This document shows positions 9,663 through 29,104 of a DNA stretch of 64,000 nt, one piece after another. Location of the stretch: the NCBI RefSeq assembly GCF_003334305.1, contig NZ_QOWS01000003.1, one strand, 5' to 3'. Under the pieces are notes generated by a model, which saw only the letters and a list, made by a program, of their open reading frames with translations, was not told the DNA's origin and searched no databases. Numbering within the stretch: position 1 is the first letter of the stretch; each line of letters opens with the position of its first letter. Source of the DNA: Escherichia coli (lineage in GTDB: Bacteria > Pseudomonadota > Gammaproteobacteria > Enterobacterales > Enterobacteriaceae). The position numbers were made by a program, and so were the translations under genes.

Positions 9663-11129
9663 TCAGACTCCCCATTTCGGAATTGGATGGTCGCCCATGG
9701 AAATGCAGACGTTCTTCATTTCCGCGAACACTTCGAAGCTGTACTCACCGCCTTCACGTCCGGTGCCGGAGGCTTTTACGCCGCCAAACGGCTGGCGCAG
9801 GTCGCGGACGTTCTGGGTGTTGACGAACACCATGCCTGCTTCAATGCCACGCGCCAGGCGTAACACTTTGCTGACATCCTGTGTCCAGATGTACGACGCG
9901 AGGCCGTACTCCACGTCGTTTGCCAGGCGTAAGCCTTCGGCTTCGTCTTTAAACGGCAGCAGGCAGGCGACCGGCCCGAAAATCTCTTCCTGGGCGACGC
10001 GCATACGGTTATCAACGTCTGCCAGCACCGTTGGGCGCAGGAAGTTGCCGCCTTTCAGGTGTGCAGGCAGGTCAGACGGTTTATCCGGGCCGCCCGCCAG
10101 CAGGGTTGCGCCTTCTTCAATGCCGAGACGGATATAGCCGGAGACTTTTTCCCAGTGTTGCTGGCTGATAAGCGCCCCAACCTGGGTATTTGGATCGTTC
10201 GGATCGCCCACGCGCAGACGGTTGGCGCGTTCGGCAAAGCGTTTAACGAATTCCGGGTAGATGCTCTGCTGAATAAAGATGCGCGAACCGGCGGTGCAGC
10301 GTTCGCCGTTGATCGAGAAGATGGTGAACAGGGCGGCGTCCAGCGCGCGTTCAATATCAGCATCTTCAAAAATCAGCACCGGCGATTTACCGCCCAGTTC
10401 CATGGAGTATTTTTTCAGCCCGGCGTTTTTCATGATGTTGCGCCCGGTGGCGGTACCGCCGGTGAACGACACGGCACGCACGTCATGATGACGAACCAGC
10501 GCATCCCCTGCGGTTGCGCCGTAGCCCTGTACCACGTTCAGCACGCCTGCCGGAATACCGGCTTCCAGCGCCAGCTCACCCAGGCGGTCAGCGGTCAGCG
10601 GGGAGAGTTCCGACATCTTCAGCACCGCGGTATTGCCCAGCGCCAGACACGGCGCGACCTTCCAGGTGGCGGTCATAAACGGCACGTTCCACGGCGATAC
10701 CAGCGCACAAACGCCCACCGGCTGCACCAGCGTGTAGTTGAGCATCTTGTCGTCAACCGGATAGGTCTTGCCGTTCATCTGCTGGCAGACTTCCGCGAAA
10801 AATTCAAAGTTGTGAGAAGCGCGTGGGATCAACACATTTTTGGTCTGATGGATCGGCAGGCCCGTGTCCGCGGTTTCCATCGCGGCGATCTCCGGTACGT
10901 TCTGGTCGATCAGATCGCCCAGACGGCGCATCAGGCGCGCGCGCTCTTTCATCGGCAGATTGGCCCATTTCGGGAACGCCTCTTTCGCTGCCGCTACCGC
11001 CTGATTGATCTCCGCTTCACCGCCGGAGGCCACATCCGCCAGCACTTCACCCGTTGCCGGATTGGTAGTCTGGAAGTAGTCGTTACCTGCAACATTTTTA
11101 CCGTTGATCCAATGATTTACTTTTTTCAT
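9663..11129 (-). CDS. hpaE: 5-carboxymethyl-2-hydroxymuconate semialdehyde dehydrogenase
   Basis: 488 aa aldehyde dehydrogenase family ORF (…ELGGKSP… motif). Confidence 0.85.
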   Translation of the reverse strand: MKKVNHWINGKNVAGNDYFQTTNPATGEVLADVASGGEAEINQAVAAAKEAFPKWANLPMKERARLMRRLGDLIDQNVPEIAAMETADTGLPIHQTKNVLIPRASHNFEFFAEVCQQMNGKTYPVDDKMLNYTLVQPVGVCALVSPWNVPFMTATWKVAPCLALGNTAVLKMSELSPLTADRLGELALEAGIPAGVLNVVQGYGATAGDALVRHHDVRAVSFTGGTATGRNIMKNAGLKKYSMELGGKSPVLIFEDADIERALDAALFTIFSINGERCTAGSRIFIQQSIYPEFVKRFAERANRLRVGDPNDPNTQVGALISQQHWEKVSGYIRLGIEEGATLLAGGPDKPSDLPAHLKGGNFLRPTVLADVDNRMRVAQEEIFGPVACLLPFKDEAEGLRLANDVEYGLASYIWTQDVSKVLRLARGIEAGMVFVNTQNVRDLRQPFGGVKASGTGREGGEYSFEVFAEMKNVCISMGDHPIPKWGV

Positions 11130-12415
11130 TTCGCTGTTTCCTCACTCACAATTCGGTTCACCAGGCGGCCCACGCCTTCTACTTCCACCACCACTTCATC
11201 GCCAGGCACCACGTCAGATAAGCCTTTTGGTGTGCCGGTGGCGATCATGTCGCCCGGATTCAGGGTCATAAATTCGCTTAAGTAGGCGATCAGGAAGGGC
11301 ACGCTGAAGATCAGATCGGCGGTGGTGCCTTGCTGGCGTAACTCGCCGTTGACGAAGGTGCGAAGGGTCAGATTATGCGGGTCCGGGATCGCCTCTTTCG
11401 GCACGATGGTTGAAAGCATCGGCGTCAGTCCGTCGCGGCTTTTGACCCGCAGGTTAGGGCGGTAGTAGTTTTCCAGATAGTCGCGAATGGCGTAGTCGTT
11501 ACACACGGTGTAGCCCGCGACATAATCCATGGCATCGGCTTCGCTGACGTTACGCGCCTGTTTGCCAATAACTACCACCAGCTCCGCTTCATAGTGCATG
11601 TATTCAATATTGTTTGGACGCACGGAGGTCTGGTTATCGCCAGTGAGGGTATTTGGCGCTTTCAGGAACACCAGCGGTTCTTCCGGTGGCTTAAATTCCA
11701 GTTCGCTGGCGTGGTCGGCGTAGTTCAGGCCGAGGGCAAACAGCGTGCCGTGCGGGTGTGGCTGCGTTGGGAAGCTCTTGCGCGTGGTCACTTCACGTTC
11801 GTCCACTACCGGATTTTCCAGCGGCGGGAAACCTTCTGCGAGAACACGAACGCGATCGCCTGGCTGTATTTCCACGCGCGCCTGTGGCGTGCCGAGCAGA
11901 ATGGCATCGCCTGGATTCAGTGTGGCAAATTCGCTCAGGGCGCTCAGCAACTGCGCGGCGTTACGTTGTAAATCGGCGGTATTCCAGTGATCGGCAGGAC
12001 GCCCGTTGATCTCGGTATAGATGGTCAGATTATCGACATTGCTGAGAGCCACGGTTTCGCCAATGGGGCAGAATCCATCACGACATTTTGCTTTGATTGC
12101 CGGGCGGTAAAAGCTCTCTTCCGGCAGGCTGACGTCGTTAGCCAGCGCATATCCGGCGATGTACTCTGCCGCATCTTCTTCACGTACTTTCGTCGCCGTT
12201 TTTCCCACAATCAGCGCAACAGTCGCACCGCTCAGTACCTTTTCACCCTGTGGAAAGGGAATCGGTTCACCGCAACCAATCACCGTATTGCGCGGTTTAA
12301 TAAACCAGACCGCAGTTTTAGGCGGGGCTTTGTAGGGGGATTGCTGGAACGCTTCCTGCCATGCATCAAGTTGGCTGCGATGGTTCAACGCTACGGCGAA
12401 GATAGTGCCTTTCAT
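11126..12415 (-). CDS. hpaG: Bifunctional OPET decarboxylase / HHDD isomerase (duplicated FAH-fold)
   Basis: 429 aa with two internally similar halves; 4-bp overlap with hpaE start. Confidence 0.8.
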   Translation of the reverse strand: MKGTIFAVALNHRSQLDAWQEAFQQSPYKAPPKTAVWFIKPRNTVIGCGEPIPFPQGEKVLSGATVALIVGKTATKVREEDAAEYIAGYALANDVSLPEESFYRPAIKAKCRDGFCPIGETVALSNVDNLTIYTEINGRPADHWNTADLQRNAAQLLSALSEFATLNPGDAILLGTPQARVEIQPGDRVRVLAEGFPPLENPVVDEREVTTRKSFPTQPHPHGTLFALGLNYADHASELEFKPPEEPLVFLKAPNTLTGDNQTSVRPNNIEYMHYEAELVVVIGKQARNVSEADAMDYVAGYTVCNDYAIRDYLENYYRPNLRVKSRDGLTPMLSTIVPKEAIPDPHNLTLRTFVNGELRQQGTTADLIFSVPFLIAYLSEFMTLNPGDMIATGTPKGLSDVVPGDEVVVEVEGVGRLVNRIVSEETAK

Positions 12416-12421
12416 TACCAC

Positions 12422-12686
12422 TCCTCGGATTCGATCATTTTAATCATTAATATGTTAATGATTACTTTTATTCCCGATTGCGTAGTTTGGCAAAAGTAAG
12501 TGATGTAAATGTGATCTAATTAACAAACTATTTACATTTAAAGATAATAAAATATTAAATATCAGCAAGTTAACAAAACATGCTCAATTTTGATAAAATG
12601 AAGAATTGCAGGGGCAGCGCAGTCCCGGTAACGTGATGATTAACTGTTTCTATATTAATGATTTTGAATTTTTCAGGGGAAAGATA
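12422..12686. promoter_or_regulatory. Divergent hpaG / hpaR promoter-operator region
   Basis: 265 bp AT-rich gap between divergently oriented hpaG and hpaR. Confidence 0.5.
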
Positions 12687-13133
12687 ATGCACGACTCTCT
12701 AACCATTGCGTTGCTCCAGGCGCGAGAAGCGGCGATGAGTTATTTTCGCCCAATCGTTAAACGGCATAATTTGACTGAGCAACAGTGGCGCATCGTGCGT
12801 ATTCTGGCGGAAAGCCCATCAATGGATTTTCACGATCTGGCGTATCGCGCCTGCATTTTGCGCCCAAGCCTGACCGGGATCCTTACGCGGATGGAACGCG
12901 ACGGTTTAGTGTTGCGATTAAAGCCGATCAATGATCAGCGGAAGCTCTATATCTCGCTAACCAAAGAGGGGCAGGCGCTGTATAACCGCGCTCAGACACA
13001 GATTGAAGAAGCCTATCGGCAGATTGAAGCTCAGTTTACTGCCGAGAAAATGCAACAGTTAACCCATCTGTTAGAGGAATTTATTGCTCTGGGCAATTCC
13101 CGACAAGAAGACATCCCGGGCGATAATGAATAA
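12687..13133 (+). CDS. hpaR: MarR-family repressor of the hpa meta-cleavage operon
   Basis: Start at ATG 12687 (MHDSLTIALLQ…) with agggga RBS; 148 aa; MarR-like winged helix. Confidence 0.8.
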   Translation: MHDSLTIALLQAREAAMSYFRPIVKRHNLTEQQWRIVRILAESPSMDFHDLAYRACILRPSLTGILTRMERDGLVLRLKPINDQRKLYISLTKEGQALYNRAQTQIEEAYRQIEAQFTAEKMQQLTHLLEEFIALGNSRQEDIPGDNE

Positions 13134-13251
13134 CTTTTTAGTATCTGATAACCAGCGCCTGGTTTTTCCATGGATGGCGGGTTACACCTTTTCATAAAGT
13201 TTTTGCTTTCCAGGCCGAAAATCTTGCATCGGTCCACAGGAAAGAGAAACC

Positions 13252-14916
13252 ATGTTAAAACGTATCAAGATCGTGACCAGCTTACTGCTGGTTTTGGCTG
13301 TTTTTGGCCTTTTACAACTGACATCAGGCGGTCTGTTCTTTAATGCCTTAAAGAATGACAAAGAAAATTTCACTGTTTTACAAACCATTCGCCAGCAGCA
13401 ATCCACGCTGAATGGCAGCTGGGTCGCGTTGTTGCAGACGCGTAACACCCTCAACCGCGCGGGTATCCGCTACATGATGGATCAGAATAATATTGGTAGC
13501 GGTTCAACCGTTGCTGAGCTGATGCAGAGTGCCAGTATTTCGCTGAAACAGGCGGAAAAAAACTGGGCGGATTACGAAGCGTTGCCGCGTGACCCGCGTC
13601 AGAGCACCGCCGCAGCGGCAGAGATCAAACGTAATTACGATATTTATCACAATGCGCTGGCGGAGCTGATCCAACTATTAGGGGCAGGCAAAATCAACGA
13701 GTTCTTTGATCAGCCGACCCAGGGATATCAGGACGGTTTCGAGAAGCAGTATGTGGCTTACATGGAGCAAAACGATCGGCTCTATGATATCGCCGTCAGC
13801 GATAACAATGCCTCCTACAGCCAGGCTATGTGGATTCTGGTGGGCGTGATGATCGTCGTACTGGCGGTCATCTTCGCCGTCTGGTTCGGTATTAAAGCCT
13901 CGCTGGTAGCGCCAATGAATCGCCTGATTGACAGCATTCGTCATATTGCAGGCGGCGATCTGGTGAAACCGATTGAGGTGGATGGCTCTAATGAGATGGG
14001 GCAACTGGCAGAGAGTTTGCGCCATATGCAGGGAGAGCTGATGCGTACCGTCGGTGATGTGCGCAACGGGGCCAATGCCATCTATAGCGGTGCCAGCGAA
14101 ATCGCCACCGGCAATAACGATCTCTCTTCGCGCACCGAGCAACAGGCCGCTTCGCTGGAAGAGACGGCAGCCAGCATGGAGCAACTGACCGCAACGGTGA
14201 AGCAGAACGCCGAAAATGCGCGCCAGGCCAGCCATCTGGCGTTAAGTGCTTCTGAAACGGCGCAACGCGGCGGCAAAGTGGTGGATAACGTGGTGCAGAC
14301 TATGCGCGATATCTCCACCAGTTCGCAGAAAATCGCCGATATTATCAGCGTAATTGACGGCATTGCCTTCCAGACCAATATTCTGGCTTTGAACGCGGCG
14401 GTTGAGGCTGCGCGTGCGGGTGAGCAAGGGCGCGGTTTTGCGGTGGTTGCGGGAGAAGTGCGTAATCTGGCCCAGCGTAGCGCCCAGGCGGCTCGTGAAA
14501 TTAAAAGCCTGATTGAAGACTCGGTGGGGAAAGTGGATGTTGGCTCTACGCTGGTCGAAAGCGCCGGGGAAACAATGGCGGAGATTGTCAGTGCTGTGAC
14601 CCGCGTGACGGACATTATGGGCGAAATAGCTTCTGCTTCTGATGAGCAGAGCCGTGGTATCGATCAGGTTGGCTTAGCGGTTGCTGAGATGGACCGGGTA
14701 ACTCAACAGAACGCCGCGCTGGTGGAAGAATCTGCCGCCGCCGCCGCCGCGCTGGAAGAGCAGGCCAGTCGCCTGACCGAAGCTGTGGCAGTGTTCCGGA
14801 TTCAGCAACAGCAGCAACAGCAGCGTGAAACATCGGCTGTGGTAAAAACCGTGACGCCAGCTACGCCGCGTAAAATGGCAGTGGCAGATAGCGGGGAGAA
14901 CTGGGAAACGTTTTAA
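13252..14916 (+). CDS. tsr: Methyl-accepting chemotaxis protein I (serine chemoreceptor)
   Basis: 554 aa; HAMP and methyl-accepting domains; C-terminal NWETF pentapeptide; seven-Gln run at 14803-14823. Confidence 0.95.
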
Positions 14917-23704: not shown

Positions 23705-24465
23705 CCGCGTAGCCCCCAAATCGTCAGTGCCATCACCACGCCGACGCAGGTAGCCAGTGTCAGCAGACTGGCGATCGCCCAGCGTGCCAGTCCGGTATTG
23801 ATGTGGCCTTTAAACATATCGGCGACGGCATTTATCAACGGAAATCCCGGCACCAGCAGCAGAACGCTGGCGGCCATCGCAATGGTGGGTGTATTGCTGA
23901 AGGTGGGAAGTTGCAAAAGCAAACCGGAAATAGTGGTGGCGGCGAAAGCGGTGAGGCAAAAGTTGATCTGTGGATGAAGATGACGTTGTGCCAGTAGCTG
24001 GCGGATATACATCGCGGCCGTACTGGCAAAGAAGGTGATGACGGCACCATCCCAGCCACCTTTATTGAGTTTACAGAAACAGGCGCAGGAAAGGCCAACC
24101 ATTAAGGCTACCAGCCATCTTGGGTAACGTAATGGCTGAATTTGGCTAAATCGTTTCTCTACGCCTTTGTAATCCAGCAGATGGTGCTCCGCCAGAATCA
24201 CAATGTGCTGGACTTCAGTCACCACATGCATATTAATGCCGCGATCGTGATTTTTACGTGTCGATGTCAGGCATTGCCCATCTTTAATGGTTGTCAGCAC
24301 TATGGCGTTCGAAGAGATAGAACTTTCAACGCTGTCCATTCCCAGCGCCCGACCCAGTCGTGAGGAAAGCTCATCAACCAACGCGCTTTCCGCACCATGT
24401 TGCAGAAGAAATAATCCACACTGGATACAAAGCCGTGTTACGGCTCGCTGTTGCTCAGTTTGCAT
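23695..24465 (-). CDS. yjjP: Inner-membrane protein YjjP (ThrE-like)
   Basis: Start placed at [12 protein letters not shown] (256 aa); track ORF extends to 24528. Confidence 0.75.
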
Positions 24466-24528
24466 AACTCGCCCTTTGTCATAGACGTGCTGCGTATTGT
24501 TCAGATAATGAGAATCCATTTGTATCAT

Positions 24529-25809: not shown

Positions 25810-26444
25810 AAAAATGCGTCATGAGCAGTATCGGTATTGAGAGTTTATTCAGAAAGTTTGCGGGTAACCCTTATAAGCTCCATACCTATACCAGTCAGGA
25901 GTCATTTCAGGATGCCATGTCGCGGATCTCATTTGCGGCGGTCATTTTTTCTTTTTCTGCCATGAGAAGTGAGCGCAGAGAGGGATTATCTTGCCTGACT
26001 GAACTGGCGATTAAGTTTCCGCGTACCCGGCGTTTAGTTATTGCGGATGATGATATTGAAGCTCGGCTGATTGGTTCATTGTCGCCATCACCGCTGGACG
26101 GTGTATTAAGTAAAGCGTCAACGCTGGAGATTTTTCATCAGGAACTCTTTTTGTCATTAAATGGTGTACGTCAGGCGACCGACCGACTGAACAATCAGTG
26201 GTACATTAACCAAAGCCGGACGCTAAGCCCGACGGAGAGAGAAATATTGCGCTTTATGTCGCGTGGCTACTCAATGACACAAATTGCCGAGCAGCTTAAA
26301 CGCAATATCAAAACGATCCGTGCACATAAATTTAATGTGATGTCGAAACTGGGCGTCAGTTCTGATGCAGGGTTGTTGGAGGCCGCAGATATTCTGTTAT
26401 GTATGCGGCATTGCGAAGCAAGTAATGTGTTGCATCCCTATTAA
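25767..26444 (+). CDS. bglJ: LuxR-family regulator BglJ (RcsB partner)
   Basis: 225 aa with LuxR-type HTH (…[44 protein letters not shown]…); overlaps yjjQ by 43 bp. Confidence 0.85.
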
Positions 26445-26481
26445 TCCGCATGATGCCGGGTTTACTTCCCCGGCAGTGCTT

Positions 26482-27270
26482 TCATTTCAGCGTACAATCG
26501 CCACATTGCTGCACATCCGGTAAGCGATAACGCTGGCAGCAGGTCCGGCGCACCAGCAGGCCGTCGCGTAGCACCACGGTACGCCAGAGTGGATTATCTT
26601 CACCGGTAGTAAGCGTTTTCTCAAAAAAGAGGGCATGGCGCAGCGATTCAACCGTCGCCTCGCCGAGCAGTTGCTTCATCTCAGTAAGATACCAGTTGAT
26701 CAAATAACCGGTATTACTCCAGATAAGTTTGCCGTTGATCTCTCCGGTCGCTTCTAGTGCCTGCACAACCGGAACCAGCGCCTGGCTGATTAACCTTTCC
26801 ATTCGCTGCTGCGGCGAATGTGGTGTTGCGTTTTTATCTTCACACACATCGACCCAGAAACAGGCGGCACGGCCGGTTTCGTGAAACTCAGCATGGAAAT
26901 GTTCCGGCGACACATCTAATGCCTTTTCCTGCGTCAGTAGCGCCAGCATTAATGGTGGCACCATCAGGCCGATATACCATTGTGCCCATAGTGAGATCAG
27001 CGGTTTGTTCTCGCGGATCATCGTTGGTTGGTTGCGATAGATATGATCGGAATAGACCGCGAGTAGAGAACTTAGCGCATTCGGTGATGACCATTGCGCC
27101 AGCGTCATGGCGTTAAGCGGAGCGGGTTCATCCAGGCGGATAAACTCCAGCAAATGTTCACGATGTTCGGCGATCGTCGCACGTACGGCTTGTGCAAGCC
27201 CAGCATCCTGTGGCTGGAGATGCGTTCGCCAGATAACATCTTCATAGAGCGGTGCGGAACGATAGGCCAT
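26482..27270 (-). CDS. fhuF: Ferric-siderophore reductase FhuF (2Fe-2S)
   Basis: 262 aa; C-terminal cysteine cluster C-C-x10-C-x2-C (…TCCQRYRLPDVQQCGDCTLK). Confidence 0.9.
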   Translation of the reverse strand: MAYRSAPLYEDVIWRTHLQPQDAGLAQAVRATIAEHREHLLEFIRLDEPAPLNAMTLAQWSSPNALSSLLAVYSDHIYRNQPTMIRENKPLISLWAQWYIGLMVPPLMLALLTQEKALDVSPEHFHAEFHETGRAACFWVDVCEDKNATPHSPQQRMERLISQALVPVVQALEATGEINGKLIWSNTGYLINWYLTEMKQLLGEATVESLRHALFFEKTLTTGEDNPLWRTVVLRDGLLVRRTCCQRYRLPDVQQCGDCTLK

Positions 27271-27282
27271 AATCGGGATAGT

Positions 27283-27397
27283 AATCTAAATGATAATGAT
27301 TGCTAATCCTAGCGATAGGTTTACCCGATAGCAAGGGATTTCTCTGGCTTGCAAATGATAAAAATTATCATATGATATTGGTTTTCATTATCAATGA
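27283..27397. promoter_or_regulatory. Putative Fur boxes in the fhuF / yjjZ divergent promoter region
   Basis: aaatgataatgattgc (27283-27298) and aatgataaaaattatcatatgatattggttttcattatc (27354-27393) resemble the gataatgataatcattatc consensus. Confidence 0.6.
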
Positions 27398-27410
27398 AAG
27401 AGATGAAACC

Positions 27411-27647
27411 ATGTTGCAACGTACGCTGGGCAGTGGCTGGGGAGTGTTGCTGCCAGGATTGCTGATTGCAGGGCTGATGTATGCGGATTTATCACCGGAT
27501 CAGTGGCGGATTGTCATTCTGATGGGATTAGTATTGACGTCGGTGATGCTGTATCACAAACAGTTACGGCATTACGTTTTGCTACCATCGTGCCTGGCGC
27601 TTATTGCTGCCATCATGCTGATGATAATGAATTTGAATCAGGGATGA
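27411..27647 (+). CDS. yjjZ: Small membrane protein of unknown function
   Basis: 78 aa from ATG 27411 (MLQRTLGSGWGVLLPGLLIAGLMY…); track ORF starts further upstream at a non-ATG. Confidence 0.65.
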   Translation: MLQRTLGSGWGVLLPGLLIAGLMYADLSPDQWRIVILMGLVLTSVMLYHKQLRHYVLLPSCLALIAAIMLMIMNLNQG

Positions 27648-27685
27648 AAAATCAAGGAAGAAACAAGAAAGGAAGTAAAGATAAT

Positions 27686-27772
27686 TGGTGCGAGGGGGGG
27701 GACTTGAACCCCCACGTCCGTAAGGACACTAACACCTGAAGCTAGCGCGTCTACCAATTCCGCCACCTTCGC
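27686..27772 (-). tRNA. leuQ: tRNA-Leu (anticodon CAG), single copy
   Basis: 87 nt; minus strand reads GCGAAGGTGGCGGAATTGGTAGACGCGCTAGCTTCAGGTGTTAGTGTCCTTACGGACGTGGGGGTTCAAGTCCCCCCCCTCGCACCA. Confidence 0.95.
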
Positions 27773-27813
27773 ATACCATCAATTCTTAAAAAGAATTGCT
27801 ACCACGGAGGCGC

Positions 27814-27841
27814 ATTCTAGTGGTTTTCAGCTTTTCGTCAA
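27814..27841 (-). promoter_or_regulatory. Sigma-70 promoter of the tRNA-Leu gene
   Basis: Minus strand TTGACG (27836-27841), 16-bp spacer, TAGAAT (27814-27819), then GC-rich discriminator gcgcctccg. Confidence 0.7.
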
Positions 27842-27894
27842 TAGTTAATTATCGCCGGAGGTGTAATTGCTGGAAAAATGTCCATCAGGAAACT

Positions 27895-28060
<166 letters not shown>

Positions 28061-28072
28061 TCGGCGGGATAC

Positions 28073-29104
28073 TTAACCTTTCTTCGCCTGGCGGGTCATA
28101 ATGGCGCGATACACCTTGAAGCGCCCGGTTTGCGCGATAACTTCATGGAAGCCAAATGTCTCATCCAGCACGTCCGGGTAAGGCAGGAAGGCGTTCGCTA
28201 CAATTCGCAGCTCGCCGCCGCTATTAAGATGACGCACCGCGCCGCGAATCAGCGTTTGCGCCGCATCCAGGCTGGTTTGCATCCCATCGTGGAACGGCGG
28301 GTTGGAGATGATCATATCAAAACGACCTTTCACCTCGGAAAAGACGTTGCTGGCAAAGACTTCACCTTCAACACAGTTGGCCGCAAGTGTTGCGCGGCTG
28401 GCTTCTACCGCTGGCGCAGAGACATCGCACAAGGTGAGACGAATTTTCGGCGAATGGCGCGCAAAGGCAACTGAAAGCACCCCCGCGCCACAGCCGACAT
28501 CCAGCACTTTACCTTTCGTGTGCGGAGTTAACGTCGAGAGCAGCAACTGGCTACCGACATCCAGACCGTCGCGGCTAAACACGCCAGGCAGCGTTTTGAC
28601 CGTCAGGCCATCGACGCTGTATTCGCCCCAGAATTTATCGGCATCAAATACCGGCTGTTTTTCCAGACGACCAAAATAGAGGCCACAGCGACGAGCGCTG
28701 TCGACTTTATTCAACGGCGCATAATCTGCCAGCATCTGCTCGGCGCTGCGCACGCCGCTGCGGTTCTCGCCAACGACAAAAATATCCGTCCCCACCGGCA
28801 GCAGAGAAAGTAAATTCATCAACTGGAACTGGGCTTCCGGTTTGTTCTTCGGCCAGTAGTAAATCAGCGTATCGCAATCTGCGACGTCATCCGCCGTGGC
28901 GACCAGACTGAAACGGGCGTTATCCCCCATCTGGCGGCTTAATACCTGCCAGTGGTGGAATTGCTGGGTATGAGCACGGCTGGCCGCGGTATCTAAACGC
29001 GCGGGCAGGTCATCCTGTAAGTCTCCGGCAAACAGAATACGGCTTTGTTCGAAATCATCACTGTGACGCAGCAAGACTTCACTTGCCGGGGTAAATGCAG
29101 ACAT
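28073..29104 (-). CDS. rsmC: 16S rRNA (guanine1207-N2)-methyltransferase
   Basis: 343 aa; SAM-binding [12 protein letters not shown] motif and NPPFH catalytic motif. Confidence 0.9.

Follow-up and report, generated by a model that had tools for sequence, protein, structure and literature searches.

In Escherichia coli, the short intergenic region from which fhuF and yjjZ are divergently transcribed is best read, on the anatomy of the locus and its comparison across enterobacteria, as two ancestral Fur operators joined by a deletion and not as one shared operator. The region was analysed within a stretch of 64,000 nucleotides of E. coli DNA (hereafter the window), in which a sequence-only reading had noticed two Fur-box-like segments between the two genes and had proposed that a shared operator places the small membrane protein YjjZ under iron control alongside the siderophore reductase FhuF. 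Both segments stand as described, i.e., each of the quoted strings is present once in the window, segment 1 (aaatgataatgattgc) at 27288-27303 and segment 2 (aatgataaaaattatcatatgatattggttttcattatc) at 27354-27392. As for the shared operator, the proposal holds insofar as there is one gap and Fur acts on both genes, but anatomy and comparison indicate two operators, one per promoter. Very probably, the locus consists of two back-to-back promoters, each under its own Fur operator, of unequal affinity, which a deletion has joined.

The FhuF open reading frame scores 477 bits against the NCBIfam equivalog model NF007932, for which the cut-off is 300, and the translation of yjjZ (78 aa) shows three hydrophobic stretches and has no match in NCBIfam. 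With the fhuF start at 27270 on the minus strand and the yjjZ ATG at 27411 on the plus strand, the gap between the divergent genes spans 27271-27410, i.e., 140 bp, and contains two sigma-70 promoters that point away from each other, their -35 hexamers separated by 14 bp (Table 1). Of 5426 complete E. coli genomes, 5425 contain a match to a 281-bp query spanning the site. At the locus, 4 of the 191 positions aligned between the window and K-12 differ, without any indel; K-12 coordinates were converted to window coordinates through this gap-free alignment, anchored on both start codons (old K-12 coordinate minus 4576416). An RNA element in the gap is not supported, since a Rfam scan of 26400-28200 (E ≤ 1) found no family there, the only matches being a tRNA-Leu and REP/naRNA4 elements downstream. 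Respective to these downstream features, a single tRNA-Leu(CAG) follows yjjZ (27686-27772, minus strand), where K-12 and strain H15 have three tandem copies (leuV, leuP, leuQ); further on, before rsmC, comes a REP-type element (27912-27994) that passes the gathering score of Rfam naRNA4 with 70.3 bits, and a partial second REP/naRNA4 copy (28023-28065) comes after it.

Table 1. Coordinates of the features of the fhuF-yjjZ locus, in window positions unless a comparative locus (L number) is given
Feature	Position	Strand	Source and remarks
fhuF, siderophore-iron reductase, 262 aa	26482-27270	-	ORF; NCBIfam NF007932 FhuF equivalog; RefSeq annotation of identical DNA
Low-affinity Fur footprint "fhuF2"	27264-27317	.	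Chen 2007, old K-12 4603680-4603733; contains segment 1
Segment 1, weak Fur box	27288-27303	.	String position, once in the window
fhuF core promoter, -35 TTGCTA (27334-27329), 17-nt spacer, -10 TAGGAT (27311-27306)	27300-27334	-	Sequence
Putative deletion junction	27342-27346	.	Alignments; other genera carry ~1.3 kb here, including the GGDEF gene
High-affinity Fur footprint "fhuF1"	27347-27399	.	Chen 2007, DNase I, converted; contains segment 2
yjjZ sigma-70 promoter, -35 TTGCAA (27349-27354), 16-nt spacer, -10 TATGAT (27371-27376)	27349-27384	+	Promoter scan
Segment 2, strong Fur box cluster	27351-27392	.	Consensus and matrix scans, shuffles
Rare T allele (A in K-12)	27384	+	Within the strong cluster, where K-12 has the yjjZ +1
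yjjZ, 78-aa DUF1435 protein	27411-27647	+	ORF translation; RefSeq annotation of matching E. coli genomes
GGDEF gene	L025:316-1380		Equivalent position in 70 of 80 comparative loci (L007-L082)

Fur sites were scored with a symmetric position weight matrix built from 10 footprinted K-12 Fur regions with fhuF left out, namely fepA-fes, fepB, entC, fepD-entS, fur, tonB, cir, sodA, fecA, and fecI, the training-site coordinates coming from Table 3 of Chen 2007 (PMC2189734); the training sites themselves score 11.8-24.2 bits. Besides, the window was compared with the 19-bp Fur consensus, GATAATGATAATCATTATC, a Fur operator being otherwise definable as an array of GATAAT hexamers. The matrix scan, which had been suggested as a check of the sequence-only reading, resolves segment 2 into two 19-bp sites, at 27374-27392 (21.0 bits) and 27351-27369 (18.6 bits), both within the range of the footprinted training sites and together the top two of the 64 kb, with weaker Fur sites 6 bp out of phase with them; outside segment 2, the next-best score in the window is 14.2 bits. 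The objection that matrix scores here might prove low is thereby answered by segment 2; segment 1 reaches only 9.3 bits. No random sequence out of 100 of 64 kb scored as high as 21.0 bits, and none of 2000 local dinucleotide shuffles of the gap attained the score of segment 2, which rules out chance AT-richness as its source. The consensus points to the same place: its three closest matches within the 64 kb (3, 4, and 4 mismatches) all lie at 27351-27392, the site at 27374-27392 is the only one within 3 mismatches (0.01 expected), and the only match to the 7-1-7 Fur motif with a single mismatch, TGATAAAAATTATCA at 27356-27370, falls inside segment 2. Segment 2 is clearly far above chance as a Fur site.

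Outside the fhuF-yjjZ gap, the highest Fur-matrix scores in the window come from several matches of 12-14 bits at 12401-13140, yet within the range of random maxima; they occupy an AT-rich gap of 830 bp between an hpaG-like gene (11126-12421, minus strand) and a chemoreceptor gene (13252-14916, plus strand) matching the NCBIfam methyl-accepting chemotaxis protein model NF011615. The presence of hpa genes in the window means that the strain is not K-12. A Fur-like site of 12.6 bits (24504-24522) lies upstream of yjjQ, and an intergenic MG1655 ChIP-exo peak that is listed without an assigned gene would fall at ~24145-24179 if the strains are collinear there (Gao et al. 2023, PMC10164565).

The published yjjZ start, 4,605,777 in NC_000913.3, corresponds to 27384 in the window (PMC10301672), and the strong cluster covers yjjZ from -35 to +9. 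At this same position the window carries T where the 21 other genera and species in the alignment have A without exception. Among 5419 complete E. coli genomes, only 14 have the exact 41-mer with T; the change from A to T brings the strong-site score from 22.2 to 21.0 bits and removes an overlapping site of 4.9 bits. A minus-strand arrangement, TTGATA-16-TATGAT (27394-27367), was considered as a fhuF promoter and rejected, as fhuF transcription has been mapped to start, after conversion, at 27301/27300 of the minus strand (Chen 2007, PMC2189734).

At the other end of the gap, segment 1 covers fhuF from +1 to ~+13 and adjoins the -10 of a core promoter whose hexamers were read from the sequence. 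It scores 9.3 bits at 27292-27310 and 7.0 bits at 27286-27304; 34 window positions equal or exceed 9.3 bits, shuffling the fhuF-side half of the gap gave as good a score in 157 of 2000 cases (p ~0.08), and by matrix score alone segment 1 is not beyond chance. It is accepted as real because of its conservation across genera, where its core AATCATTATCATT (fhuF strand) is kept, and of the published low-affinity footprint.

That Fur binds in the gap and controls both genes is already part of the literature and of the E. coli regulatory databases, and all the binding and expression evidence considered here comes from publications on other strains, the allele of the present strain being read from its sequence. 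Two Fur clusters were predicted at the locus, with sites of 16.1, 20.8, and 22.3 bits on the one hand and of 14.6 and 9.3 bits on the other hand, and Fur was found to protect both segments in vitro by DNase I footprinting, in addition to gel shift (Chen 2007, PMC2189734). In vivo, the MG1655 Fur ChIP-exo peak converts to 27363-27378, and the W3110 Fur ChIP peak is given to both yjjZ and fhuF (Gao et al. 2023, PMC10164565). Likewise in CFT073, one ChIP peak serves for both genes, which are derepressed 208-fold (yjjZ) and 90-fold (fhuF) (Banerjee et al. 2020, PMC7157518). Altogether, direct Fur binding at the locus has been published for K-12 and eight other strains. ChIP cannot separate two sites that are ~60-80 bp apart. 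Across nine E. coli strains, yjjZ ranks 1 in the 36-gene core Fur regulon (PMC10164565), with log2 fold changes upon fur deletion of 5.5-11.3 for yjjZ and 2.0-8.5 for fhuF (PMC10164565 supplement); the derepression of fhuF is below that of yjjZ in 8 of the 9 strains, and the difference is very large in MG1655 (PMC10164565). In the ROSE study, which cites two yjjZ Fur sites in EcoCyc, the yjjZ start was obtained from a sigma-70 promoter in vitro and in a Δfur strain, and was absent in the wild type (PMC10301672). In Salmonella, iron represses a yjjZ reporter, and yjjZ has been counted among the members of the Fur regulon (PMC8432900), while fhuF, ~1.4 kb from the strong box, is 8.5-fold up in published Δfur data. 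A fhuF fusion has long served as reporter in the Fur titration assay (Chen 2007, PMC2189734). Taken with the footprints and ChIP peaks, the derepression of both genes in Δfur strains bears out the expectation that yjjZ and fhuF are under Fur and iron control; for yjjZ, whose possible lack of iron regulation had been named as a point that would count against the reading, regulation is present, both as derepression in Δfur E. coli and as repression by iron in Salmonella.

What the comparison of genomes brings in is the history of the gap. The fhuF locus was collected from 80 enterobacterial species, in 75 of which yjjZ was found. Only in 4 Escherichia (140 bp), 4 Leclercia, and 2 Silvania (153-166 bp for both genera) is yjjZ directly divergent from fhuF; in 70 of the 80 species, including those of the genera Salmonella, Citrobacter, Klebsiella, Raoultella, Enterobacter, Lelliottia, Kluyvera, and Kosakonia, a gene on the fhuF strand, with a product of ~350 aa, lies between them. 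The product is a membrane-anchored GGDEF diguanylate cyclase (TIGR00254, 160 bits), and wherever the yjjZ start is visible in species carrying it, the yjjZ ATG stands 1395-1444 bp from the fhuF ATG. In Salmonella, this intervening gene is named STM4551, and a literature search for STM4551 together with fhuF returned no paper. The gene has not been relocated within these 64 kb, since a tblastn search of the window with the GGDEF protein of Salmonella gave no match.

In all these arrangements, each promoter keeps its own box. The strong box, typically GATAATGATAACCAATATC, lies at most ~40 bp from the yjjZ ATG in 75 of 75 species, with 2 mismatches to the Fur consensus in 63 of them, 3 in 10, and 4 in 2, and the yjjZ -35 and -10 are kept alongside it across genera. 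The weak-box core AATNATTATCATT is found at most 70 nt upstream of fhuF, just after the -10, in 76 of the 80 species (~20 named genera); the fhuF -35 CTTGC and -10 TAGGAT are kept in the 22 genera and species aligned, and a near-invariant AATCATTATCATTTAGATT directly follows the -10 across the aligned genera. Besides these boxes, a block CAATTTATCACCTT...TGTCAT (L025:165-200 in one comparative locus) is kept ~70-100 bp upstream of yjjZ in the genera carrying the GGDEF gene; it fits a candidate promoter for that gene (ATGACA-17-TAAATT, extended -10), which would stand back to back with the yjjZ promoter, outside the Fur box.

The homology of E. coli to the other genera stops at ~27341 on the fhuF side and starts again at ~27347 on the yjjZ side. 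The GGDEF gene is carried both by close relatives of Escherichia and by every more distant genus, so that the E. coli adjacency would most simply be derived, through a deletion. Between the -35 elements, Leclercia and Silvania have ~36 nt vs 14 in E. coli, and this different junction points to a deletion in Leclercia and Silvania independent of that in Escherichia. Fusion through deletion of the GGDEF gene in Escherichia appears well supported by these alignments, and the strong site would belong ancestrally to yjjZ, though the literature names both as fhuF sites. The response of Salmonella fhuF to Δfur also argues for the weak box close to the gene being enough to bring it under Fur.

Mechanistically, the locus would most likely work by classical promoter occlusion, with two operators that differ in affinity. 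In iron-replete cells, Fe2+-Fur dimers would fill 27351-27392, over the -35, -10, and +1 of yjjZ, shutting out RNA polymerase and leaving yjjZ nearly completely silenced, while Fur would occupy at lower affinity the weak box at ~27286-27310, over the edge of the fhuF -10 and from +1 to ~+13, and repress fhuF. When iron is scarce, Fur would come off and both yjjZ and fhuF would be transcribed; with unequal affinities, fhuF should leave repression more readily and yjjZ should have the larger dynamic range. As regards its origin, the ancestral order would have been yjjZ - GGDEF gene - fhuF with one Fur box per end, from which Escherichia would have lost the ~1.3-kb middle, as Leclercia and Silvania would have done independently. 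We infer the steric occlusion, the functional independence of the operators, and the direction of evolutionary change. Unequal operator affinities fit both the larger dynamic range of yjjZ respective to fhuF and the use of fhuF in the Fur titration assay. For the latter, fhuF was reportedly chosen as reporter by Stojiljkovic in 1994 for its special sensitivity to Fur titration.

A truly shared operator would read the same region otherwise: the strong cluster would govern both promoters, with Fur spreading or cooperating over ~60 bp, and the weak box would be a mere extension of it. Such a reading agrees with the labelling of both footprints as fhuF promoter sites and with the widening of Fur protection at higher concentration (Chen 2007, PMC2189734), with the assignment of a single ChIP peak to both genes (PMC10164565, PMC7157518), and with the position of the strong cluster at -46 to -98 of the fhuF start. 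It becomes improbable, though, when considering that fhuF still has its own conserved box in the 70 of 80 species where the strong box is ~1.4 kb off, and that Salmonella fhuF is Fur-repressed despite this distance. Moreover, the two footprints are separate, with ~30 bp without protection between them (PMC2189734), and the weaker derepression of fhuF in 8 of 9 strains, most of all in MG1655, fits a different, weaker site. Within the preferred reading of two operators, the strong cluster, lying 46-98 bp upstream of the fhuF start, might still contribute to fhuF repression.

Another reading concerns segment 1 alone, which would not chiefly be a Fur site but a leader or translation signal or an OxyR site, the Fur control of fhuF being indirect or exerted from elsewhere. 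Its matrix score is indeed weak, and the invariant block runs past the Fur-like part (CATTATCATTTAGATT). An OxyR-like match, to the motif ATAGnTnnnAnCTAT-N7-ATAGnTnnnAnCTAT, covers the fhuF -10 and spacer at 27293-27329 with 13 of 20 specified positions, consistent with the repression of fhuF by OxyR reported in a review; in the OxyR motif scan of the window, ~10 loci are as good or better, and the match is not distinctive. Against this stand a low-affinity DNase I Fur footprint exactly here and the 14.6 and 9.3 bits given to the segment by Chen's information model (PMC2189734), as well as the conserved core itself, which is a perfect GATAAT hexamer plus flank. That segment 1 is chiefly something other than a Fur site is very hard to credit, whereas its conservation could come in part from the fhuF 5′ leader or another regulator. 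The reading retained is thus that of two Fur operators, one strong and one weak, each at its own promoter.

Divergent iron-regulated genes are familiar in the enterobactin cluster of E. coli, where fepB and entC are said to have been shown by Brickman et al. in 1990 to diverge from a bidirectional control region. We know of no indication that the fepB-entC arrangement stems from a recent deletion. For fepA-fes and fepD-entS, Hunt in 1994 and Christoffersen in 2001 reportedly described bidirectional regions with a central Fur site overlapping both promoters. With these last two regions, fhuF-yjjZ has in common divergent sigma-70 promoters, a short AT-rich gap, and Fur repression; it differs from them in that their operator is truly shared while its own promoters stand back to back with a site each. 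It resembles fepB-entC more closely in having two separate Fur-protected regions, one per promoter, between divergent iron-regulated genes (footprints at 623939-623969 for fepB and 624054-624102 for entC; Chen 2007, PMC2189734). However, the partners of fepB-entC share one pathway whereas one partner of fhuF-yjjZ is without known function, and the fhuF-yjjZ sites, unlike those of fepB-entC, differ strongly in affinity. The K-12 sites fhuF1 and fhuF2 (Chen 2007, NAR 35:6762), together with the yjjZ sites of EcoCyc/RegulonDB, are the same locus, with segments 1 and 2 inside the two footprints; respective to them, the present strain carries a single rare change in the strong site, T instead of A at 27384.

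As Fur control was already established at this locus, the finding has little weight as a discovery, although it shows that a working operator can be recognised correctly from the letters alone, and its only new element is the recognition of the "shared" region as a probable deletion-made fusion of the yjjZ and fhuF operators. A more tentative corollary, which we regard as possible but doubtful, is that the deletion of the GGDEF gene in Escherichia changed the iron response of fhuF through cooperative loading of Fur from the strong to the weak site; if true, the response would contrast with that in Salmonella, Citrobacter, and Klebsiella, where the operators are 1.4 kb apart. The strong Fur site would belong ancestrally to yjjZ, the gene on which Fur repression is strongest in nine strains; the locus would offer a clean natural case of two operators joined by a gene deletion, and as a fused locus it may be used to ask whether a weak Fur site responds differently when a strong one lies nearby.
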